In this document: piece after piece, positions 1 through 57,090 of the stretch
How positions within the stretch are numbered: position 1 is the first letter of the stretch
How the letters are laid out: each line of letters starts with the position of its first letter
Assembly (NCBI GenBank): GCA_049322615.1
Contig: JBMORX010000010.1
Span: forward strand, 89,416-153,415
Direction of reading: 5' to 3'
DNA length: 64,000 nt
Source of the DNA: Patescibacteria group bacterium
GTDB taxonomy: Bacteria > Patescibacteriota > Microgenomatia > CAYGWK01
Translations under genes and position numbers: made by a program
Notes under the pieces: model-generated
The model's database searches: none
What the model saw: only the letters and a program-made list of their open reading frames with translations
Told to the model about the DNA's origin: nothing

Positions 1-3000
1 AGTACCTCCTGTACCAAAGGCTAAACTTCCAGAAGATAGGATTTCGTGCCTGCCAACAGCGACAGTCTCAATTTCGAAGTCCAAGGTTTCAGCACCCAGA
101 CTATTCTGTAGCCGCAAGGGATATTTGGAAGGACTTCCAGCCCCAGGGTCATCAACATTCAGCTTAAAACTTCCCGGCCCCGTCGTCCCGATGCCGACGT
201 TGCCTACCGTATTTACCGTCAAGGCCGGTGTCCAGGCATTAACTCCTGATTTGTAGTCTAGAGTTAAAAGTCCAGCATTTCTTGGTCTGACTGCTCCTCC
301 CGAAGCAAGATATAAATTCCCAGAAACCGAGGCATCTCCGGAGACATCAAGTTTAGCTAAAGGAGAAGTTGTCCCAATTCCAATCTGACTGCCGGTTTCG
401 TAGATTATCGAGTCGGTGAGGGTCGTTGAACCTGACCATTTCGGAATGTAATTTTGCGTTCCGGTTCCCGAAAGAGAGGAGGAAGTGCCCATGACAATCC
501 AGGAAGTTCCATTACAGTAGTACATCTTATCATCTGTGCCGTCATAGTATTGTTTGCCTTTATTTGAGGCGTTACAGGTCCCGGCATAGGCGGGAGCATT
601 GGGTCCAAAACCTAAAGTCCCTGAAATGGTGGCGTTACCGGCAATATCTAGTTTTTGGCTTGGAGAGGTCGTCCCGATGCCGACGTTGCCACTTTTGTCT
701 ACGACGCTTAACACGCCCCCATCGCTATTCTGCCATTGGGTAAGGTCTCCTGTCTGACCTGAAGTTCCTTTAATAATTAATGGTATAGATGCGGCACCAA
801 CTGCACTATCGGCGGTAATTATTGCTGCGTTAGGAAGAAAAGCCTTTCTGCTGCTGTAGGTTAAAACAGGATTTCCATCACTCACTGAGAGAAATCCACT
901 AGATGCATAAATTCCACCACCATTAAAGTAGCCAGTGCCCGCAACTTCCAATTTGTAGGTAGGCCCCGTCGTCCCGATGCCGATATTACCCGCCGAAGTG
1001 ACCACGAAGGCGGGCGTTGCCGTGCCTCCGCCAACGGAATTGCCAATCTGGAGAGAACCATTGTCATACAAATTAATCAAATGAGCCGTGCCACTGCCTC
1101 TGAATGTTAGATTTCCCGAGGCGGAGGCACTCCCGGCAATATCCAAGGTGGCCAATGGTGAAGTTGTTCCAATCCCAATCTGGGAACCGGTTTCGTAAAG
1201 AATCGAATCGGTTAAAGTGCTAGAGGTTGACCATTTGGGAATGTAGTTTTGTGTTCCCGAACCCGAGACCCCACTTGCTCCTGAAGCGACTGCCTTCCAA
1301 GAAGAACCATTACAATAGTAGTATTCGTCGGCAGCATTATCATAGTACATCTTTCCTTCAGCCGCAGCATTACAGGTGCCGGCATAAGCCTGAACTTGGG
1401 GACCTAAAGATAAAGTTCCGGAAATAGTGGCGTCTTCTGCCAAAGTCAGGTCATTGAGAATATAGGTATTATGAGCGACAATCCCATTAGCAACAAAATT
1501 ATGGGTTCCCTCAACCTCAATATCATAGACCTGCTCCTCGCCAACATACTCAATCGAGGCAATTTTCGCCCATTTGACTCGGCTGCCAATTCCTCCACCT
1601 CGGAGGAGCCCCTTCGGGTCACCATCCGAGGTGTCTGCTGTGGCAATTTCCATTCCCGGACGAAGATAGATGACCTTTGTCCACTCGGCGTTGACAAAAG
1701 AATTTTCTTCTGATAGATTATTCTTAATGAGAGGGGTTGATCCAATTTGGCTGTCAATAGTATCAGACCTATTTGTTAACTTGTCTGCCGGTTGGTTTGG
1801 AGTGGTACTTATCGTTCCTAATTTTGCTAAAGAGAAGGGAAGAAGAAAATTGTTGGTCTTGACAACCGATGTATTACTTGGTATATTTTCCTTAGGTGTG
1901 GCATTTGTTTTAAGAAAATTATTATGAGCTCCAAAGACAAAATTGATATTCTCGATGTTAACGCCAGAGCCGCTATTGCTTTTGGTTTGGCCGTAATCGC
2001 TTTGCTCTTGCTTTATATTGCTTTCCTTAAGTAAATCTTGCCAATTTCTCACTAAATATGGGTGATTTCCGGTTGTCCTTATTTGTCTTCCGTCTTCAGT
2101 CGTCAGTCTATAGACTGGTTTGACCCCCATATCCAACAATCCCTTGATTTTGGCCGGCTCAATTTTGCCAGTTTTTTCGTTTAAAGAAAGAACAAGTTCT
2201 CCACCTTTAATATCCTTGATCTGGACGAAGGAGATATTAGGTGATTTTTCTTTTTTGTTTTCGCTCTTAGTATCATAGTCTCTTAGTATCTTAGTATCTT
2301 CTGTTGCCACGATTGGTAAAAGACTGTCGCCAGTAACACACTGTCCCTCAACATGGAGTTTTTGGGCAGGACTCGTCGTCCCGATGCCGACGTTGCCGGT
2401 ATTGATCCAGGAATTGTTACCAGATGTACCAGTGAGTTTTACTAAAGCCGAGGAGGTAGCCGTTGCTCCAAGCAAAACATCATCAGTGATATTGGTGGGG
2501 GAGAGTGCTTGGGCATTTCTTTGCCAATAGCCCGAGGTTCCGGAAGAAGGAGAGTAGATGTTATTGGCATACAAAGCATTCCAATACAAAGATGAAGAAC
2601 CAAGGTTTCTTGTTCCTGTTGCTTCGGGAGTAATATCTCCAGCTACCTGGAGAGCTGATCCTGGATTAGTTAAGCCTATTCCCACATTACCAGAGCTGTT
2701 AACAAACAATCCTGTCGTCCCTGTGGCACCCCGTAGCCAGGCAGTTCCAGCAATCTCTAACTTAGCGCCTGGCGAAGTGGTGCCGATGCCGACGTTGCCG
2801 CTGCTTAATACTAAACTGTCAGACGTGGCGCTGGAATTGATTCTGAATGGATAAGCTCCAGACTGTTGGTTTTTGAAAGCCAGTCCATAGACAGGATTAT
2901 CTGTAGAAATAATCCTGAAATCTACATTAGGGTCTCTCATCAATTCTAAATAGTTATCAGTGCCGTTGCCATTGACTCTTAGGTTGCCTGTTATATCTAG

Positions 3001-6000
3001 TTTTTCACTTGGTGCCGTCGTCCCAATTCCCACATTCCCTAAATTATTAACCGTCAGAGCCGGTGTCCAGGCATTGACTCCGGATTTGTAGTCAAGAGTT
3101 AAAAGTCCAGCATTTCTTGGTCTGACTGCTCCTCCCGAAGCAAGATACAGATTTCCAGAAACTGAAGCATCTCCAGAAACATCAAGTTTAGCTAAAGGCG
3201 AGGTGGTCCCAATTCCAATCTGTCCGCCTGTTTCATAAATTATGGAATCGGTTAAAGATGAAGAAGTACTCCATTTGGGAAGGTAGTTTTGTGTTCCCGA
3301 ACCAGAAACCCCACTTGCTCCTGAAGCCACTGCCTTCCAAGAAGAACCATCACAATAGTAGTATTCATCTTGGGCATTGTCATAGTACATTTTCCCTTCA
3401 GAGGAAGCATCACAGGTTCCCGCATAGGCCTGAACTTGGGGTCCTAGAGCTAAAGTCCCAGAAATAGTGGCGTCTTCTGCCAAAGTCAGGTCATTGGCAA
3501 TATAGGTATTGTGAGCCACAATCCCGTTGGCAACAAAGTTGGCGGTATTGGCAATCTGAAGATCATAGACATGTTTTTTACCAGCAGGCTTGATAGAGAC
3601 AATTTTCTCCCACTTGACCCCGCTATATTCCTTAGCATTCGCCTTTTTAATACTATTCGTATACGGCTCATGCTGCGGATTTACGGGGTCTGCGCCCTGT
3701 ACCGAGAAGGGAACTTGGTGGTGGGGCTTGACATCACCTAATTTACTTGTGGTAGAATGATTATCGATGGGAGAGTTAAAAGGAGAACCCAAAGTATATT
3801 CGGAATTTTTCACTAACGGAGCAGTCGCTTGGCTTTCAGCTGGGGTAATTGCGCCCTTATTTGCCAGAACATTAGGAATGAAGGAGGTAATTGCTTCTTT
3901 GATTTCTATTTCTTCTTGTATATTGTTTTTAAAATTAGCCTCTGATTTTAGCAAGGAGGGTCGATGATTGCTGATAATATTTTGATTGCCTACAGTATTG
4001 GAGTGATTATGAGTAGTATTATAATTATTTATGCCTACTTTCGCTTGAAAAAGTGAGGAATTATGAGTATTGAGACTATTGTTTATATCTTGGCGATTAT
4101 TTTCGGGGTGATTGCTTTCTATATTGCCTTCTTCAAGGTGCGTTAAGTTGGCAACCGCTATTTCTTCCCTTTCTTTTAAGAAAATAACTTTCTTCCACCC
4201 ATCAGGCGTTAGGTACGGGTGATTTCCGGTGGTTTCGATCCTTTTGCCTGATTCGGTTTTTAACTCATAAACTTCCTGAATGCCTTTGTCCAGAGTTTTT
4301 TCCACTTTCTGCCAGGCAAATTCTCCAGTATTTTCGTTTAAGGACAAAACTCTGTCTCCAGGTTTAACATCCTTTATTTGTTTATTTGACATTTGACATT
4401 TGACATTTGACATTTGACATTGTGCTACAGGCACTAAGCTATCCTCGGCCACACATTCTCCTGCTACATGGAGTTTTTTGGAAGGCCCCGTCGTCCCGAT
4501 GCCGACGTTGCCGGTATTGATCCAGGAATTGTTACCAGATGTACCAGTGAGTTTTACTAAAGCCGAGGAGGTAGCCGTTGCTCCAAGCAAAACATCATCA
4601 GTGATATTGGTGGGGGAGAGTGCTTGGGCATTTCTTTGCCAATAGCCCGAGGTTCCGGAAGAAGGAGAGTAGATGTTATTGGCATACAAAGCATTCCAAT
4701 ACAAAGATGAAGAACCCAGGTTTCTTGTCCCCGTTGCCTCGGGAGTAATATCTCCAGCTACCTGTAATTTTGAACCAGGACTTGTCGTCCCGATGCCGAC
4801 GTTGCCGCTAATATACGTGTCCCCGTTACCTAAGATTGAAAGTCCTTTCCCAGTTGTATAATCTGAAAGTGTTACTGCATTATGAGTTGCATCACCTTCA
4901 CCCTTAATAATCCATTCTCCATAAGCAGCAGGCCCGATGAAATAATTATCCGAATCAGAGTGGCGAAAATAATCTACATATAGACTGCTCCAGTGACTTG
5001 TAGACAGACCCAAATGTCGGTTGGCGCCAGAAGGAAGGATATGACCTGCTGCTTGGATACTACCCAAAACATCCAGCTTTTGACCCGGATTCGTCGTCCC
5101 GATGCCGACATAACCTTGTTCGGTCATTACCATTCCCGTTGTCCAGGCATCGGCTCCAGATTTATAGGCAAGTTGGAGTGGTCCGTAGGCAGGTCTAATG
5201 GTTTGTCCTTGACCAATGGTTAGGGTTCCAGACATTGAAGCATTGCCGGTAGTTCCTTCAAAATAGAGTTTGGCAGAAGAAGTGGCGGTTCCCCCAATGG
5301 CGACTGATTCGTAAGTGTTGTTGGGATAAATAACTCCACTGGTCTTTGTCCAATATCCTGAAGTTCCACTCGAGCCGCCATAGATATTATTGACATAAAG
5401 ATTATTCCAGTAAAGTGAAGTAGAACCTAAATCGTAAGTGTTTCCAGAGGAGGGAATGAGATTTGAGGCGACGTTGGCGTTTAAAGTTAAGTTTCCGGCT
5501 AAGGTTAAGGCGTTAAGGTTACCAGTGCCAGAGGAATTGATATAATAGGTGGTTCCGCCGCCAACGCTGATTCCCGCTGATGAGACAATATAAGACGCTG
5601 ATTGTTCGCCGATATCCAAAGAAACACCGCCAGCGCCGGTAATATCGCCGCCGGAAACGGTAATATCACCAGTAAAATAAGAACCAGTGGTATTGGCCCG
5701 AAGAATACCGGCGGCTGAGGCATTGCCGCTATAGTCAACTGTAAACTTAGGAGAAGGCGTCGAGCCGGATTCAAGTTTTAAAAGATTTAAATTGGTATTA
5801 TTGTTGGCTACCGAGCCATATAAAAGAGTATTTGCTTCTCGACCGCCTGATGAGCCGAGATTAGCATCGGTGGCGCTTATCACATTTCCCGTCCCGCCTG
5901 ACAAAGTTAGGTTTAGCACTCCGGAGCCATCGGGTGCTATGGCAATATTGCCGTTGGTGCCGGTATCGGTCACAATCGAGAGCGCCTGACCTCTAATTTG

Positions 6001-11328: not shown

Positions 11329-12321
11329 TTAGGTGGTTTTCTCTTTGGGGGTCTCTTCTTCAAGTTCTTCTTTTTCTTTTTGGCGCCGGCGGAGAAAAAG
11401 GACAATAAGAATAGCGATGACAATCGCCAAGACTATCGCCAGGGCGATCCTGACTGGAAAAACAACAAAGTAGAGGGTGGCAAGCAAAACCTGACCGGTC
11501 GTTCCATAAGAAGCCGATAAATCTGCCCGATAGCGACCCAAAAGATATTTAGCGTTCCAGGTATTTTGATAGATAAAAGAGGCACTGGGAAAAATATTTC
11601 TTTCCTCAAGGGGCATAACCGTGGTTACTTTACCCAACATATTTCTGACCGTAATCGTCCCCTTTGGGGCAAGATGCAAATCAGAGAGATTTAAAATCTC
11701 CGTGGTGAACTTAACCGGTCCAAATTCTAAAAACTTTGGGGCGTCGAATAATTTGACTAAAGCCCGTTCTGTTACCGGTCCTTCAACCGTAAAATAAACC
11801 AAAGTTCCAACCACTTGCTGAATAGCGGTACCGGCCCCCGTACCCGCCCCAATTCGGGGGGGAGTCCCTTTTGACTGATATAAAACTCCGGCATAATGTC
11901 CTCCAGGTAGGGCATCCAAAGGAACGTTAGCGGAGACAACGATATTAACTGTTTGTTTTGGAGCAACTGCCACTGAAGTTGGGGAAAGTCTAATCCAGGA
12001 AGAAGCCGCCCAGCGACCAGAAACTTGGGCGCCGACAAACTCCGGAGTTCCGGCGGTATCCTTGACAATAAAATCCTTGGCAACGACGGCTAGGTAGGCA
12101 GTCTCGTCTCCTTCATTTCGAAATTGAATAGTTTTTTGAACAAACTCTCCGGGCTTGACTTTGACTTCTAAACGAGGAGGAATGGCGGTAAAAATCTGGG
12201 TCTGCGCCCGCGCGAAGCGCGGAATAAGCAAATAAGCAAATAAGCAAATGACAAATAAGCCAATAATAAGAAATTTGAAATTTGAAATTTGAAATTTGAA
12301 ATTGATTTGTTTATTTGACAT
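11329..12321 (-). CDS. C-terminally membrane-anchored surface protein B1 (330 aa). It has a signal peptide, a beta-rich ectodomain, a C-terminal TM helix and a charged tail.
   Basis: MSNKQINFKFQISNFKFLIIGLFVICLFAYLLIPRFARAQ... then IPPRLEVKVKPGEFVQKTIQFRNEGDETAYL... and a C-terminal ALAIVLAIVIAILIVLFLRRRQKEKEE. It is a paralog of 14433..15452. The architecture is reminiscent of DUF916-type anchor proteins of WxL loci (from memory, unverified). Confidence 0.6.
   Translation of the reverse strand: MSNKQINFKFQISNFKFLIIGLFVICLFAYLLIPRFARAQTQIFTAIPPRLEVKVKPGEFVQKTIQFRNEGDETAYLAVVAKDFIVKDTAGTPEFVGAQVSGRWAASSWIRLSPTSVAVAPKQTVNIVVSANVPLDALPGGHYAGVLYQSKGTPPRIGAGTGAGTAIQQVVGTLVYFTVEGPVTERALVKLFDAPKFLEFGPVKFTTEILNLSDLHLAPKGTITVRNMLGKVTTVMPLEERNIFPSASFIYQNTWNAKYLLGRYRADLSASYGTTGQVLLATLYFVVFPVRIALAIVLAIVIAILIVLFLRRRQKEKEELEEETPKEKTT
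12271..12298. repeat. 4x AAATTTG heptanucleotide tandem repeat within codons 6-16 of B1, followed by three 8-nt TTGCTTAT units that form the signal-peptide core.
   Basis: aaatttg x4 at 12271-12298 encodes the NFKFQISNFKF segment on the minus strand. Confidence 0.85.
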
Positions 12322-12339
12322 TTGTATTATTTGTTTATT

Positions 12340-15473: not shown

Positions 15474-16268
15474 TTAGTAGGTTGGTGTTGCCACAAAAAT
15501 AATATAGTTCTCATAATCTCCCGCCGCCTGGCTTCCCGAGATATTGACTTTATAAGTAACCGTTCCCACCCTATTTTTGCCCACCTGGGAACTTGACATG
15601 ACTATGCTTGGGTCCTCTGAGGCTGCCAAAGAGGGAAAAGGACGAAAATAAGTAGAGTTGACAAAAGTCGCCGGAATATCTTGTCCTTGCATATTATAGC
15701 CAAAACCATACTTAGTATTATCTGTCCAAGGCTGGGCCGTGGTTTCATCGCAGGTTTGGGCTCCACCATTACAGGTAGTATCGGAAATAGTGGCTGTTCC
15801 TGCCAGGGTTTTTAAGGTATCACTTTCTCGGGCGGTCACCTGATAGCCGCCGGCGCCACCGGCGGAAACAGTTAAAGTATTGGTTTGGGTTGAGGGTGTC
15901 CCTGGAGTTAAAGTGCCAAAATCAATAGATAAATCAGAGATTGTAAACCGGAAAGGGATGATGGACTTAAGATACCAAAAACCGCTTCTTACCTTGTATC
16001 CAGTTGAAGTGTAGAGTCCGGGAGCAGTCTGCCCGCCGGTGACCCCAAGTTTATAACTTGAGGAAGTGGGTAGCCCGGCGCCCATATTGACATTGCCCAT
16101 CTGGATTTTATAAGAATCGGAAGATAAGTTCTCGGCGCGAGCGCCTCGAGTAATAAGCAAATAAGCAGAGCTTGTTGCTACGCAATAAGCAAATAAGCAA
16201 ATAAGCAAATAAGCAAATAATTTGAAATTTGAAATTTGAAATTGATTTGACATTTGCTTATTTGACAT
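15474..16268 (-). CDS. Secreted surface protein A2 (264 aa), paralog of A1, with the C-terminus SGSQAAGDYENYIIFVATPTY.
   Basis: The N-terminus MSNKQMSNQFQISNFKLFAYLLICLFAYCVATSSAYLLITRGARA is encoded largely by tandem 7/8-nt repeats. The body is Thr/Gly-rich. Confidence 0.6.
   Translation of the reverse strand: MSNKQMSNQFQISNFKLFAYLLICLFAYCVATSSAYLLITRGARAENLSSDSYKIQMGNVNMGAGLPTSSSYKLGVTGGQTAPGLYTSTGYKVRSGFWYLKSIIPFRFTISDLSIDFGTLTPGTPSTQTNTLTVSAGGAGGYQVTARESDTLKTLAGTATISDTTCNGGAQTCDETTAQPWTDNTKYGFGYNMQGQDIPATFVNSTYFRPFPSLAASEDPSIVMSSSQVGKNRVGTVTYKVNISGSQAAGDYENYIIFVATPTY
16221..16241. repeat. 3x TTTGAAA heptamer tract in the A2 5' coding region. It is flanked by 4x AATAAGCA octamers (16170-16210) and GACATTT heptamers (16244-16280) around the start codon.
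   Basis: Read directly at 16170-16280. Confidence 0.85.
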
Positions 16269-22301: not shown

Positions 22302-22305
22302 CTTT

Positions 22306-22456
22306 GGCTCGGAGACGAACGTTTTGCTTGAGTTTAGAGATGACGTCCGATTAAATCGGACACGGCCTGCTTAGATGAAGATTTTAAGACTCAAGTTGTG
22401 TCCCGGGAGGCGCAGGCCTGTCACATTAAACTCTGCGCAAAAGTTGTCTCCTCGCC
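22306..22456 (+). repeat. R-element copy 2 (P1 is GGAGACGAAC/GTTGTCTCC).
   Basis: ggctcggagacgaacgttttgcttgagtttagagatgacgtccgattaaatcggacacggcc...aaactcaagttgtgtcccgggaggcgcaggcctgtcacattaaactctgcgcaaaagttgtctcctcgcc. Nearly identical to copy 4 at 32621. Confidence 0.75.
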
Positions 22457-22488
22457 ATCTTTAGAAGAAAAATTTATTTAATTTTTAT

Positions 22489-22519
22489 CTTATTTTGTCT
22501 GGGTTGTAAAATTGTTTTC
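22489..22519. repeat. 31-nt direct repeat, copy 2.
   Basis: Identical to 22261-22291. Confidence 0.85.
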
Positions 22520-22528
22520 GTAGGGATG

Positions 22529-22740
22529 TGGCTCGGGAATGAATTTGTTGCTTGGATTTAGTGATGGCTCCCGCCAATTAGGCGGGACCAGCTCGCGACT
22601 GGGTAATTCGAAACTCAAGTTGTGTTCCAGGGGGTCGCGGCTTGGAACGTCAGACGTTCCTTGCCACTTAAATCCGGCGCAAAAATTATTCCCTCGCCCT
22701 TAATTTCTTAATATCTTAGTCTCTTAATATCTTTTATTTT
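22529..22740 (+). repeat. R-element copy 3 (P1 is GGGAATGAATT/AATTATTCCC) plus the 3' tail CCTCGCCCTTAATTTCTTAATATCTTAGTCTCTTAATATCTT, which runs up to the ATG at 22741.
   Basis: Shares the same boxes. The tail is shared with copy 4 (32770-32811), which ends at the mreB ATG. Confidence 0.7.
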
Positions 22741-30650: not shown

Positions 30651-31241
30651 ATGCTGCCTAAATACAAATACCTTTTGACTTACCGTTATGCCGAAATTAT
30701 TCAGGACGGAACAAACGATTTTTGTCTAAGACACTTAAGTGACTTAAGAAACTTAAGAATTCCTACGAGGCGGACTGTCGAGCAGATGACGCAAAGCGGC
30801 CGGAGTCTGAAACAAAATATTATTGAGGCAGTAAGCGATAGTCTGACTTCGAAAAAAACCGAGATTAAACTTTTGGGAGTAGCCTACGGTTCGGTTGAAG
30901 AATTGATTGCCGATTTTGAAGATTTTTTAAGACAAAGAAACCTGCAAATTTGGCCGAAAACAGATAAGCGAGTCTTAATCTTTCGTCGACTTGGGTATCG
31001 CTTAAGTAACCTAAGTAACCTAAGTAACCTAAGTAACCTAAGTAACTTAGGAAACTTAAAAGAAAAACTAGTTTTACCGGAAAATCCCGAAGAAGCGGCC
31101 AATTTACTTTTGACTTTGTGTCACATGGAGAGTTATCTTTTAAGTTGTCAAATTAAAGCGGCGGAAGAAAAATTTATCAAAGAAGGCGGCTACACGGAAA
31201 ACTTGTTTAAAAAGCGCCTTGAAAGTAGAATACTTAAGTAA
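30651..31241 (+). CDS. Four-helix-bundle protein with suffix (196 aa). It contains an in-frame tandem repeat.
   Basis: RRTVEQMTQSGRSLKQNIIEA...EGGYTENLFKKRLESRILK. An internal 5x 12-nt repeat AAGTAACCTAAG (31002-31056) encodes LSNLSNLSNLSNLGNL. Confidence 0.55.
   Translation: MLPKYKYLLTYRYAEIIQDGTNDFCLRHLSDLRNLRIPTRRTVEQMTQSGRSLKQNIIEAVSDSLTSKKTEIKLLGVAYGSVEELIADFEDFLRQRNLQIWPKTDKRVLIFRRLGYRLSNLSNLSNLSNLSNLGNLKEKLVLPENPEEAANLLLTLCHMESYLLSCQIKAAEEKFIKEGGYTENLFKKRLESRILK
31002..31056. repeat. 5x 12-nt tandem repeat (CTTAAGTAACCT-type) inside the four-helix-bundle gene. Further CTTAAG-containing repeats lie at 30740-30770 and 31232-31265.
   Basis: cttaagtaacctaagtaacctaagtaacctaagtaacctaagtaacttagga. 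Confidence 0.85.
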
Positions 31242-32588: not shown

Positions 32589-32620
32589 AAGTTGGTATAA
32601 TTGGGAAGTTTTTGGTTTGT

Positions 32621-32811
32621 TGGCTCGGAGACGAACGTTTTGCTTGAGTTTAGAGATGACGTCCCGCTTTGCGGGACACGGCCTGCTTAGATGAAGATTT
32701 CAAAACTCAAGTTGTGTTCCGGGAGGCGCAGGCCTGTCACATTAAACTCTGCGCAAAAGTTGTCTCCTCGCCCTTAATTTCTTAATATCTTAGTCTCTTA
32801 ATATCTTAAAA
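32621..32811 (+). repeat. R-element copy 4 plus its tail, directly abutting the mreB start codon.
   Basis: Near-identical to copy 2 (22306-22456) except for the P2 hairpin loop. The tail cctcgcccttaatttcttaatatcttagtctcttaatatcttaaaa is followed by the ATG at 32812. Confidence 0.75.
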
Positions 32812-34341: not shown

Positions 34342-35109
34342 ATGAAAGCTGATATCTTGGGAGTAAAAATTGACAATTTGAAAGAGAAAGAGGTAATTTA
34401 CGCGGTGCGTAAAAAGATAGCCAAAAAAGAGAAATTTTGGATTGCTACCCCTAATCCGGAGATGATAGTTCTGGCGCAAAAAGATTTGCAATTTAAAAGA
34501 ATTTTAAATTCTGCTGATTTGGCTATTCCAGATGGAATAGGTTTAGTTTGGGCGGGAAGAATTTTGGGGAGAGAGATAAGAGAGCGGGTAAGTGGGGTGG
34601 ATTTAATGGAAAAACTTTGTCAGGTGGGAAGCCAAAATGGCTGGAGTGTTTATTTAATTGGGGGGAAGCCAGAGGTGGCGAAAACGGCGCTTGAGGTTTT
34701 AAAAAAGCGCTATCCGGGCTTGAAAGGCTGGGCGGAAACAGGACCTGAATTAGAAGTGGGAAGTGGGAAATGGGAAGTGGGAAGAAAGAAGGGCGGAGTG
34801 GGAAGTGGGAAGTGGATAGAGAAAATAAATCAAAAAGAACCCACAATCCTTTTTGTTGGTTTTGGCATGGGCAAGCAGGAAAGATGGGTGGCAAAATATT
34901 TTGATATATTAAATATTGGGGGAGCAATGGTGGTTGGGGGCGCTTTTGATTTTATTTCTGGAAGAGCGCTCCGAGCGCCGATCCTGATCCAGGACTTGGG
35001 TCTTGAGTGGCTTTGGAGGTTAATCCAGGAGCCTTGGCGGATTAAAAGACAGTTGGCACTTGGCAGATTTGTTTTTTTGGTTTTGAAAGAGAGACTTTCT
35101 TTACTATAA
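34342..35109 (+). CDS. WecB/TagA/CpsF-family glycosyltransferase (N-acetylmannosaminyltransferase-like).
   Basis: ADLAIPDGIGLVWAGRILG...YLIGGKPEV...FVGFGMGKQERW. An in-frame insert of GGGAAGT 7-nt repeats at 34746-34812 encodes LEVGSGKWEVGRKKGGVGSGKW. The same GGGAAGT/GAGAAGT repeats occur intergenically at 33845-33885. Confidence 0.78.
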   Translation: MKADILGVKIDNLKEKEVIYAVRKKIAKKEKFWIATPNPEMIVLAQKDLQFKRILNSADLAIPDGIGLVWAGRILGREIRERVSGVDLMEKLCQVGSQNGWSVYLIGGKPEVAKTALEVLKKRYPGLKGWAETGPELEVGSGKWEVGRKKGGVGSGKWIEKINQKEPTILFVGFGMGKQERWVAKYFDILNIGGAMVVGGAFDFISGRALRAPILIQDLGLEWLWRLIQEPWRIKRQLALGRFVFLVLKERLSLL

Positions 35110-35127
35110 TAATTTTCGCTAGGTATC

Positions 35128-35300
35128 GACTCGGAGACGAACGTTTTGCTTGAGTTTAGATTGGATTGTTAGATTATTTGCTAGGGTATAGGGGATGAGT
35201 TAAGGTGAAGTAGCGCGTTACGGCTACGTCAATGGGTGACGTTACCCATAAACCAATCCTTAACGCGCCGCGTCACCATCACCGTAACCGTAACCTTTAT
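35128..35300 (+). repeat. R-element copy 5 (the 5' half CTCGGAGACGAACGTTTTGCTTGAGTTTAG is conserved, the 3' part divergent).
   Basis: The first 34 nt match copies 2 and 4. The rest carries GTTAC/GTAAC-rich hairpins. Confidence 0.5.
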
Positions 35301-38831: not shown

Positions 38832-39063
38832 AATCGCTGATTAGCGCTGATAAAAAATCGCCTCTACCGAGGCGAATTCTGCGTTTCTGCTTTTTCCGCG
38901 TTTCTGCGGTTGCAGTCCTCGGTAGTCCTCGCTTTGCTCGGACTGAAGTCCTTTTTGCGAGATTATCTTCGGTTTTCAGGGCTTTACCCTGAGCTTGCCG
39001 AAGGGCTACTGTCTTAGGTCTTCTTGCATTCTACATTCTTAATTACGAATTGTCAAGTTAGTG

Positions 39064-39110
39064 TTTTTGTTTTGTTTTGTTTTGTTTTGTTTTGTTTTGT
39101 TTTGTTTTGT
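39064..39110. repeat. (TTTTG)x9 pentanucleotide microsatellite in the rplJ upstream region.
   Basis: gtttttgttttgttttgttttgttttgttttgttttgttttgt. Confidence 0.9.
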
Positions 39111-39138
39111 ATCCCAGAGTAGTCTGTTATTGTCTCCT

Positions 39139-39187
39139 ATCCCTAAACACAAACTCTTGCTATAGCTTGACTTTGTGTTTATGAAAA
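39139..39187. repeat. CACA..TTCTTGCTATAGC..TGTG hairpin element, copy 1. It is the left flank of the cassette inserted between rplA and rplJ.
   Basis: acacaaactcttgctatagcttgactttgtgtt. A direct repeat lies at 39893-39935 and an inverted copy at 49868-49905. Confidence 0.7.
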
Positions 39188-39208
39188 GTTATGGTTAATT
39201 TATAATTT

Positions 39209-39895
39209 ATGAAGGTTAGAAAGATAAAGCAGAGAAAAGAAAGAAAGCCGTCTGAGTATAAATTAGCCCTTAGGGATGTTGATTGGGAGAAAGTGGCAAA
39301 AATTTTTGAGCCAGAAAAAGAATCAATTATTAATTCTTTAAAAAAAGAAATTGATAGGTATCCCTACAGTAGGGAAATACTTTATCTTTTAGCGGCTGGG
39401 GTTTTTCTTGGAGGGACAATCATTTTTCCCTGTTTTCCCGCCGCCGTAGCCCCACTTTTAGGTGAATGGGACAAATATCACCGAGGAAGACTAAGCCAGA
39501 CAATTAAAAGATTTAAAAAACAAAAATTGGTAGAGATTGAGGAAGAAAATGGACAGCAAATAGTTAAAATTACCGAAAAGGGGAGAACGCGGGCTTTGAA
39601 ATACAAACTTGATGAGATGAAAATAAAAAAGCCAAATGTTTGGGATAAGAAATGGAGAATTGTCATTTTTGATATTTTCGAAAAGAAAAAGTGGTTTAGA
39701 GAAATTTTTAGGGCAAGACTTAAACAACTTGGTCTCTTTCGCCTCCAGGATTCAGTTTTTGTTTTTCCTTACCCTTGTTTTGAGGAAATTGAATTCCTTC
39801 GTCAGATCTATGGAGTTCCACTTGAGGTAAGGTATGTTATAGCAGAAAAAATTGAAGACGAGGGAGATTTGAAAAGCCAGTTTAACCTTTCATAG
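39209..39895 (+). CDS. Hypothetical protein with a PaaX-like C-terminal region, encoded on the opposite strand inside the ribosomal cluster.
   Basis: 228 aa. ...KKWRIVIFDIFEKKKWFREIFRARLKQLGLFRLQDSVFVFPYP resembles the PaaX-type repressor C-terminal segment (from memory, weak). Confidence 0.4.
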   Translation: MKVRKIKQRKERKPSEYKLALRDVDWEKVAKIFEPEKESIINSLKKEIDRYPYSREILYLLAAGVFLGGTIIFPCFPAAVAPLLGEWDKYHRGRLSQTIKRFKKQKLVEIEEENGQQIVKITEKGRTRALKYKLDEMKIKKPNVWDKKWRIVIFDIFEKKKWFREIFRARLKQLGLFRLQDSVFVFPYPCFEEIEFLRQIYGVPLEVRYVIAEKIEDEGDLKSQFNLS

Positions 39896-39935
39896 ACACA
39901 AATTCTTGCTATAGCATAATTTTGTGTTTATGAAG
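39893..39935. repeat. CACA..TGTG hairpin element, copy 2 (the right flank, a direct repeat of copy 1).
   Basis: gacacaaattcttgctatagcataattttgtgtttatgaag. Confidence 0.7.
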
Positions 39936-39994
39936 TGAGTGAGGATGGGCAGGGAAAATCAATTACCTGTTCATTGAATTGAATATAAGCTTGG

Positions 39995-40100
39995 GGTGGA
40001 GATGAATTTTTGTTTTTTGGGTTCGGGAACGAATTTTTGCTTGGATTTAAAAATGGTTCCCGCCGATTCGGGGACCTACTGGCTTAAGTTAGTTTTCAAT
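39995..40100 (+). repeat. R-element copy 6 (partial or degenerate).
   Basis: ggggtggagatgaatttttgtt...gggaacgaatttttgcttggatttaaaaatggttcccgccgattcggggacc. Shares the 5' boxes and the P2-type hairpin. Confidence 0.45.
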
Positions 40101-40106
40101 TATAAA

Positions 40107-56878: not shown

Positions 56879-57090
56879 ACTCCCGCTTTTAAATTTGCCC
56901 CGTCCTTTGCTCTTCTTGACAAAATTCCGCACGTGCCAGATTTTGTCAAGAGGATACGATTACCCCTAGCCTTGCATATTTTATGCCGATCGGCTCAAAA
57001 TAAGTAGTAGGAGCACCGAGGAAGAAGTTTAAGAAATCTTAAAATTTTCCGGGAAGATTTGATTATTTTAATCTATTAGTATATAATACG

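Follow-up and report, generated by a model that had tools for sequence, protein, structure and literature searches.

PaaX is a GntR-type repressor of phenylacetate catabolism of about 305 amino acids, whose C-terminal domain, PaaX_C, binds phenylacetyl-CoA and whose autorepression works by occluding RNA polymerase. Its targets include its own promoter, and its binding site is an inverted repeat with widely separated halves, TGATTC-N27-GAATCA (PMC9493321). Here we describe a locus in a 64-kb stretch of Patescibacteria DNA (the window, whose positions serve as coordinates throughout) in which a gene for a short PaaX-type protein, bracketed by two similar palindromes, stands between the ribosomal-protein genes rplA and rplJ on the opposite strand to both. 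The L10 protein of the window is 100% identical to an L10 deposited at NCBI as "Patescibacteria group bacterium", and the protein of the inserted gene is 100% identical to ACOZBZ_04770 of an NCBI metagenome-assembled genome (MAG). From comparison with homologous loci, we lean towards reading the locus as the gene of a short, autoregulated PaaX-type repressor between two cognate operators, relocated to the rplKA/rplJL boundary.

Like PaaX, the encoded protein combines a winged helix with a Cas2-like central domain that comes after it. The AlphaFold2 model, for which 120 homologues were used (predicted local distance difference test score 84.8), begins with a basic, helical N-terminal segment (helices at residues 26–46) and continues into a winged helix at about residues 54–136, made up of H54–62, the recognition helix H92–104, a wing at 108–121 and H123–136, before a ferredoxin-fold Cas2-like domain at residues 149–224 with the order β-α-β-β-α-β. 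Residues 63–90 form a low-confidence loop. A transmembrane segment at residues 57–85 was considered and provisionally rejected, since the model puts H54–62 in the winged helix and residues 63–90 in the low-confidence loop. Foldseek returns E. coli W PaaX (8a39) as the top and sole strong match in the Protein Data Bank (E = 1.2e-5, 204 aligned columns), followed by the PaaX-like structures 3l09 and 3kfw and then by Cas2 and VapD on the C-terminal domain.

At the sequence level, residues 143–216 match PF20803, Pfam's PaaX_M model of the central Cas2-like domain, with E = 3.6e-15 and 56.3 bits (cutoff 24), and the winged helix gives weak Pfam matches to HTH_34 and MarR_2 alone. A Pfam search of the 228-residue protein finds no PaaX_C, and the chain ends right after the Cas2-like domain. 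The initial annotation, which had called the opposite-strand gene PaaX-C-like, thus placed the gene correctly and named the wrong domain. Searches of NCBIfam and PADLOC yield sub-threshold or weak matches to Cas2 and PaaX only: the full-length PaaX equivalog TIGR02277 reaches 19.6 of the required 264.55 bits, and the Cas2 model TIGR01573 24.1 of 24.5 bits, covering residues 149–185 only. Unlike PaaX, with its roughly 305 residues, the protein has no paa genes nearby; its neighbours in the window are ribosomal-protein genes, and those of its homologues are varied (FemAB-like, HAD, nusB, UvrD and others). The product is best described as a short PaaX-type protein without the C-terminal effector domain of PaaX. 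The family is large, with 704 clusters (50% identity) at E ≤ 1e-30, mostly of 180–240 residues, and 2815 clusters at E ≤ 1e-10, and more than 526 relatives are found in Joint Genome Institute metagenomes.

The flanking repeats of about 40 nt that the initial annotation had described as hairpins were recovered on either side of the gene (Table 1). These two sites, which we propose as operators O1 (upstream) and O2 (downstream, starting from the TAG stop codon), are 42 nt each and 88% identical, and their shared pattern, ACACAAA-N-TCTTGCTATAGC-N5-TTTGTGTT, has no match in 100 shuffles. Both are imperfect palindromes, with 15 of 18 symmetric pairs in O1 and 14 of 18 in O2. O1 fits the consensus of the whole family, CAAA-N5-GC-N4-GC-N5-TTTG, with a −35-like TTGACT in place of its right inner arm.

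Homologues in other contexts are flanked in the same way. A paralogue from the same MAG (P0010, 59% identical to the window protein), which adjoins nusB-rnc-rpsP, has two flanking palindromes that differ from those of the window (GCGCAAAAC-N-GCGGTCGC-N-TTTTGCGC), and the layout recurs in other contexts (L001, L003, L006, L008, L010 and L020) around homologues 32–73% identical, with examples from Shapirobacteria, Saccharibacteria and Nomurabacteria. A further 80 loci were taken from metagenomes, and the flanks of all loci were searched for their best shared 30-mer. Nearly every locus with both flanks contained a matched pair, whose copies agree at 24–30 of 30 positions; in the mismatched-locus null the mean is 19 and no pair exceeds 23. 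Centred on the dyad, the pair is clear in 66 of the 77 loci with usable flanks, 63 of them non-redundant. Private to each locus are the outer arm bases (positions 14–19) and the central tetranucleotide, as seen in the cores GCTATAGC, GCGGCCGC, GCCATGGC, GCGATCGC, GCATATGC, GCACGTGC, GCAATTGC and GCTTAAGC. High identity within a pair is limited to positions −20 to +19 around the dyad, with background levels beyond, so the palindromes read as discrete sites of about 38–40 bp and not as relics of a larger duplication. The downstream dyad lies at a median of about 31 nt past the stop codon (63 loci). A scan of genome contigs for the strict palindrome pattern gave 22 loci, which include cognate cassettes in Saccharibacteria, Nomurabacteria and Shapirobacteria as well as solo hairpins, among them ordinary terminators of Gammaproteobacteria and the multi-copy palindromes of two MAGs described below.

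The private sequence of each pair varies with the adjoining protein, and does so domain by domain. In partial Mantel tests over the 63 loci with whole-protein divergence controlled, arm divergence follows divergence of the recognition-helix region (r = 0.26, p = 0.002) and is negatively related to that of the Cas2-like domain; core divergence follows the β1 loop, residues 149–162 (r = 0.19, p = 0.004), and shows no relation to the recognition helix H3. One subfamily, in which the recognition helix is near-invariant (IPYLKRTLxRLEKQKLVEI), always carries the arms TTGACAAA, and its core varies jointly with the loop after β1 of the Cas2-like domain. Such domain-specific co-variation is what direct read-out of the sites would predict. 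At six loci that share an orthologous downstream neighbour (29–47% identical), the PaaX-like proteins are 44–57% identical and the palindromes fall into four types, with both copies changed together, which points to co-evolution in situ under vertical descent.

Taken with the pairing of sites, this co-variation makes it very probable that the encoded protein binds its flanking palindromes sequence-specifically. The protein would dimerise through its Cas2-like domain, as PaaX does, and sit on the dyad, where the β1–α1 loops would read the central GC-N4-GC core and the two winged helices the CAAA-containing arms about 12–19 bp out on each side. Such a geometry would reproduce the wide spacing of the E. 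coli PaaX operator, whose length is comparable to that of the palindromes here (about 34–40 bp). The module differs from PaaX in its GC-N4-GC core, in the second cognate site at the 3′ end of the gene and in the hypervariable specificity among homologues.

The upstream copies appear adapted to promoter function. A gene-directed sigma70-like promoter overlaps 34 of the 63 upstream copies, compared with 15 of 63 downstream copies and about 6% of background windows. Its −35 element sits in one of two places, the left arm or the position next to the core on the right (+4 from the dyad, as in the window), and TTGA stands directly right of the core in 20 of 63 upstream and 2 of 63 downstream copies. 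In the window, O1 and the predicted promoter overlap, 13 nt separate the promoter from the ATG, and the gene lacks a visible Shine-Dalgarno sequence. Because the upstream site overlaps the gene's own promoter, binding would repress transcription, and negative autoregulation at this site is likely.

A different reading takes the palindromes as nucleic-acid hairpins (bidirectional terminators, mRNA-stabilising 3′ stem-loops or elements like the repetitive extragenic palindromic (REP) sequences) whose link to the gene is structural. As single strands, both copies fold better than shuffled sequences (ΔG −6.8 kcal/mol and z −5.2 for O1, −8.5 kcal/mol and −3.8 for O2), the downstream copies follow right after the stop codon, and perfect palindromes of 36–38 nt occur in some loci (L039, L095 and L010). 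Across the family, however, symmetry is high in the core (0.81–0.97) and the arms (0.94) and poor in the inner spacers (0.44–0.78), where a stem would have to pair. G:T (53) and A:C (47) occur equally often among the positions that do not pair, so that neither strand shows the wobble bias of an RNA or single-stranded stem. An intrinsic terminator has a G+C-rich stem and a U-tract; the stems here are A+T-rich with unpaired inner arms and no U-tract, and a terminator scan returned nothing at either palindrome. A search of Rfam with the palindromes was likewise empty. A pure terminator would need neither an upstream copy nor co-variation with the recognition helix and the Cas2-domain loop, the upstream copy carries promoter hexamers, and the family pattern occurs only three times in the 64 kb (O1, O2 and a solo site at 56916–56949). 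An RNA hairpin or terminator was rejected for the missing terminator call, the missing wobble bias and the poorly symmetric inner spacers, and hairpins of the broader kind are quite improbable. We favour palindromes that act as double-stranded DNA operators.

Two sets of side observations touch on the hairpin question and were counted in its favour, along with the plain terminators seen in Gammaproteobacteria. In the MAGs CAZSRG01 (L011, L015, L018, L024, L028 and L031) and JALUMP01 (L013, L014, L022 and L026), 5–6 near-perfect intergenic palindromes of 36–38 nt with the core GCTATAGC are dispersed, in CAZSRG01 paired with a second type that has the core GCGGCCGC; the fetched flanks of these palindromes contain no detected PaaX-like gene, and the sites may be REP-like elements or regulon sites. 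The second lies only 2.5 kb from the locus, where an IS200-type Y1 transposase gene resembling the REP-associated tyrosine transposases (RAYTs) is found just upstream of secE (42468–43175, minus strand; Pfam Y1_Tnp, E = 1e-9), flanked by two exact 17-nt near-palindromes, TAACCTTAGAGGTTAAG, at 42414–42430 and 43191–43207 and nowhere else in the window. This gene and its short hairpins form a REP/RAYT-like layout separate from the PaaX-like palindromes. The PaaX-like module itself resembles REP/RAYT systems as a single gene between two copies of a gene-specific, co-evolving palindrome with occasional solo copies elsewhere. It differs from them in that its protein is not an HUH/Y1 enzyme and its palindromes, at about double the length, pair poorly in the inner arms, lack a wobble signature and number three per 64 kb.

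How the module came to lie in a ribosomal gene cluster can be followed in relatives. The nearest (L112–L115, L10 69–70% identical) have secE-nusG-rplK-rplA, then 108–190 nt, then rplJ-rplL and an HTH_17 gene, which follows rplL in the window too. Their rplA–rplJ gap consists of the L10 leader alone (RF00557 at 50.7 bits in L114), and the −35 element of the leader promoter, TTGACA, overlaps the end of rplA (alignment A3). The corresponding gap in the window, put at about 1.3 kb in the initial annotation, measures 1275 nt. The window keeps the homologous rplJ promoter and leader, so about 1050 nt (39057–40106) are extra. The proposed insertion into a conserved cluster is thereby borne out, and no relative was seen to have this gene at this position without the repeats, which always accompany it. 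The genes most similar to the inserted one (P0003, 73% identical; P0004, 68%; P0006, 60%) lie outside ribosomal clusters, next to genes for a FemAB-like acetyltransferase, a HAD protein or a helicase. In L116, a more distant relative at 58% identity, the gap contains an unrelated, unannotated gene of 118 codons on the same strand (3501–3857), so the rplA–rplJ boundary took insertions more than once. PaaX-like modules also lie within 3 kb of rplKAJL in other lineages (L065/L068/L076, L110 and L036), before rplK or after rplJL; this enrichment may be an artefact, ribosomal proteins being easily recognised.

The absence of the cassette from the nearest relatives and the unrelated contexts of its closest homologues would also suit a minimal mobile or selfish element. 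The palindromes would then be its ends, recognised by a protein that cuts or joins DNA with its Cas2-fold domain, unaided or helped by host factors, and the two copies would be duplicated target or end sites, like insertion sequence (IS) ends with a transposase promoter, REP/RAYT elements or the repeat duplication of clustered regularly interspaced short palindromic repeats (CRISPR). The stretches homologous between L006, L008 and the window begin and end only a few nucleotides from the palindromes, and solo palindromes stand at 49878 and 56916. Yet the extra DNA overshoots the palindromes by about 90 nt and 171 nt, although the relatives are only about 70% identical in L10 and later additions are possible, and no target-site duplication was found around the extra block against L112 and L114, nor a solo palindrome at the empty site of the relatives. 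Pfam, NCBIfam and PADLOC searches detect no transposase or recombinase domain in the module, none recurs nearby, and neither does Cas1. Among about 85 loci there are no near-identical copies in different contexts: pairs with at least 78% DNA identity share context or lineage, and the paralogue in the same MAG is the distant P0010. A scan of viral contigs found no relatives of the protein. An origin of the repeats as target-site duplications or att sites is weakened by seven loci whose copies are clearly inverted. Most telling is that synteny is kept over long divergence while both palindromes change in situ. The initial suggestion of a small mobile or recombinase-targeted element finds no support in these comparisons, and mobility of this kind is unlikely, although relocation events like that of the window clearly do happen.

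Several observations nonetheless pull towards mobility and weigh against an autoregulated repressor with two operators, or limit what supports it. Copies are clearly direct in 24 loci and clearly inverted in seven, an excess of direct pairs, and in L088 and L047 the copies are identical even at non-symmetric positions; a symmetric dimer would call for neither feature. The module is oriented at random relative to its neighbours (25 convergent, 23 co-directional). L008 and L107 have flanking genes 60–67% identical and yet carry different subfamily members (37% identical) with different palindromes. D155, at the position of the catalytic Asp of Cas2, is invariant in 120 sequences, so that nuclease activity of the Cas2-like domain is conceivable; S182 of this domain is invariant too. 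A self-targeting repressor has no obvious benefit, and variable context is typical of selfish or mobile modules. Furthermore, the partial Mantel test is liberal under shared ancestry, the support for operators is comparative throughout, and the role given below to the downstream site is a reasoned guess. As an observation apart, the PaaX-like module of L008 is flanked by inverted copies of an unrelated repeat of about 125 nt (2510–2634, 3574–3642 inverted, and 5089–5212), which recurs in other contigs of the same sample (L034 and L041) and is like a miniature inverted-repeat transposable element (MITE).

Comparison with IS elements that carry a promoter in their terminal repeats brings out the same balance: cognate sites at both gene ends, a −35 element in the upstream site and private ends that co-evolve with the protein are shared, but the module has no catalytic transposase domain, no multi-copy near-identical elements and no target-site duplications, and its synteny is conserved over long divergence. 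The resemblance to Cas2 and VapD is confined to the C-terminal domain, which has the Cas2 fold, keeps the β1 Asp (FDI motif) and gives weak matches to Cas2 hidden Markov models. A unit between two palindromic repeats of about 36 bp superficially recalls the repeat-spacer-repeat of CRISPR; here, however, the Cas2-like domain is joined to a winged helix, unlike a stand-alone Cas2 of about 90 residues, the gene itself (about 750 bp) takes the place of the "spacer" and the repeats are not always direct. No Cas1, other cas genes or CRISPR array are seen in the 64-kb window, nor a CRISPR repeat family at gathering score, and no Cas1-like neighbour recurs in 77 loci. An autonomous "gene between two repeats", whose winged-helix/Cas2-fold protein recognises and nicks or duplicates the palindrome of about 38 bp by a mechanism akin to CRISPR repeat duplication or casposon integration, seems a distant prospect. 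If true, it would be a previously unseen type of selfish element in Patescibacteria or, alternatively, an evolutionary link from Cas2-fold nucleases to PaaX-type regulators. Integron attC sites stand at the 3′ end of a gene only, in arrays served by intI and attI; here the same palindrome lies on both sides, there is no integrase, and the arrays seen have at most three sites, all of the same private sequence.

For the two-operator repressor, the downstream site is the part that departs furthest from precedent. In the loops formed by GalR (OE/OI), LacI (O1/O2), DeoR and AraC, two operators hundreds of base pairs apart, one of them over the promoter, can likewise be bridged; here the operators bracket the entire coding region of the regulator, and looping is a candidate only. 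As a second cognate site at the stop codon, O2 might tentatively be seen as a loop partner or as a roadblock or insulator against the convergent rplKA operon, shielding rplA from antisense read-through. A general role as the promoter of a co-directional neighbour was rejected, the neighbours of the modules being 25 convergent to 23 co-directional.

In evolutionary terms, the module would be ancient and widespread in Patescibacteria and mostly inherited vertically, with the protein and both sites drifting together to new private specificities. Beyond the flanking pairs, about 400 kb of homologous loci contain seven extra cognate sites against one with non-cognate controls, and several of these bracket an adjoining gene: a HAD hydrolase (L103), a small gene (L083) and a thermonuclease-like gene (L074). 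Regulons thus seem very small and largely local, which would leave specificity free to drift. In the lineage of the window, some rearrangement would have moved the module to the rplKA/rplJL boundary, rplJ keeping its promoter and leader.

Solo sites bear on a last alternative, in which some other, unlinked factor binds the palindromes as symmetric promoter/operator elements that work in both directions, with the PaaX-like gene as just one target. Many TTGACAAAAT-N14-ATTTTGTCAA palindromes do read as complete −35/−10 promoters on both strands, and the solo site of this class at 56916–56949 keeps its position after an HhH-GPD gene in a Shapirobacteria MAG. Still, the palindrome is private to each locus and changes with the adjoining protein and not with the genome, and the two paralogues of one MAG have different palindromes. 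Binding by an unlinked factor is very improbable. The solo site itself, TTGACAAAATTCCGCACGTGCCAGATTTTGTCAA, has the operator architecture of the family but is of another type than O1 and O2, and stands 38 nt past the HhH-GPD glycosylase gene, with 260 nt between it and the VanW-like gene that follows; presumably it serves a further paralogue whose gene lies beyond the window. In the Shapirobacteria MAG (L012, 190–221), the solo palindrome at the same position after the homologous HhH-GPD gene is of the type of the local cassette.

The window also has the third copy noted in the initial annotation, diverged and matching the local copies at 28 of 36 positions (Table 1); its description as inverted has little meaning for a palindrome. 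A CARDB-domain gene (49739–49122, minus strand) and a gene of 393 codons (50085–51266, plus strand) diverge from the intergenic region that contains this copy. The hairpin of the copy falls short of significance (z = −1.65). The copy may be an additional operator or a relic, and its neighbours are not homologous to those of the Shapirobacteria solo site.

Patescibacteria, also known as the candidate phyla radiation (CPR), have tiny genomes with very few recognisable transcription factors, and to our knowledge almost nothing is known of their gene regulation. We found no paper in the searched literature that describes the short PaaX-like family or the layout of a gene between two sites, and family-wide paired, private and co-evolving operators around a Cas2-fold/winged-helix regulator in CPR bacteria appear to be new. 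With the predicted site written on both sides of the gene, the family would offer hundreds of natural protein/operator pairs from which to read a recognition code, in which the winged helix would read the arms and the Cas2-like loop the core, and its members could find use as orthogonal repressors and operators. The two cognate sites and the fast drift in specificity might be explained by looping, roadblock insulation or selfish behaviour. The locus also indicates that the rplKA/rplJL boundary tolerated an opposite-strand, self-insulated gene, the rplJ promoter and leader being retained.

Table 1 Features of the rplA–rplJ region and related sites (window positions)
Feature	Position	Strand	Details
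Upstream palindrome, proposed operator O1	39144-39185	.	dyad between 39162/39163; TAAACACAAACTCTTGCTATAGCTTGACTTTGTGTTTATGAA
Sigma70-like promoter of PaaX-like gene (predicted)	39167-39195	+	TTGACT-17-TATGGT
Short PaaX-type protein gene, 228 aa	39209-39895	+	open reading frame (ORF)
Downstream palindrome, proposed operator O2	39893-39934	.	dyad between 39911/39912; TAGACACAAATTCTTGCTATAGCATAATTTTGTGTTTATGAA
Diverged third copy	49878-49911	.	GACACAATCTTAAGCTATAGCAAGAAACTGTGTC
secE	42382-42155	-	
nusG	42150-41536	-	
rplK	41501-41079	-	
rplA (L1)	40994-40107	-	ORF, clustering with L1 genes of other loci, gene tables of relatives
Partial R repeat (5′ ~70 nt of ~190 nt)	40017-40085	+	repeat family D15, alignment A1; between O2 and rplA 3′ end; part of inserted block
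(TTTTG)9.2 microsatellite	39065-39110	.	100% matches; directly upstream of rplJ promoter −35; part of inserted block
rplJ promoter, sigma70-like	39056-39028	-	TTGACA-17-TAGAAT; 11/12, strong
L10 (rplJ) leader RNA	39036-38842	-	Rfam RF00557, 28 bits, E=0.036; full-length model, sub-gathering score
rplJ (L10)	38831-38322	-	
rplL	38220-37765	-	

Among the minor features of the region, the start codon of rplA is uncertain, the listed ORF being perhaps N-terminally over-extended, and the L10 leader contains a terminator-like hairpin at 38875–38858. The (TTTTG)9 array of the initial annotation is present and perfect, but it stands upstream of the −35 element of the rplJ promoter and so outside the leader RNA in which it had been placed. 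It is one case of a genome-wide habit: about 20 short tandem arrays of 5–9-nt units, perfect or near-perfect, lie in intergenic DNA across the window (for example at 4384–4421, 12223–12339, 16184–16220, 31003–31046 and 34753–34815), and several are common to multiple loci.

The partial R element, first placed at 39995–40100, aligns over the shorter interval given in Table 1. Other copies lie at 22304–22491, 22528–22733, 32620–32807 and 35126–35170, two of them 97–100% identical, in intergenic sites that precede an MBL-fold gene, mreB and a sigma-factor gene or follow a ComEC-like gene. As RNA, a full copy has a stable fold (−65 kcal/mol, z = −4.2); an Rfam search with the element gave no match, and it could be a structured RNA or a MITE. 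Elsewhere in the window, ARAGORN calls a tRNA at 47912–47987 (minus strand; Rfam tRNA score 54.7 bits) with a four-base anticodon (ctta) and undetermined identity, and positions 1–5200 hold a large coding region with internal repeats of 60–300 nt containing GTCGTCCCGATGCCGAC (repeat families D1, D3–D5 and D8), which is probably a repeat-rich surface protein gene.

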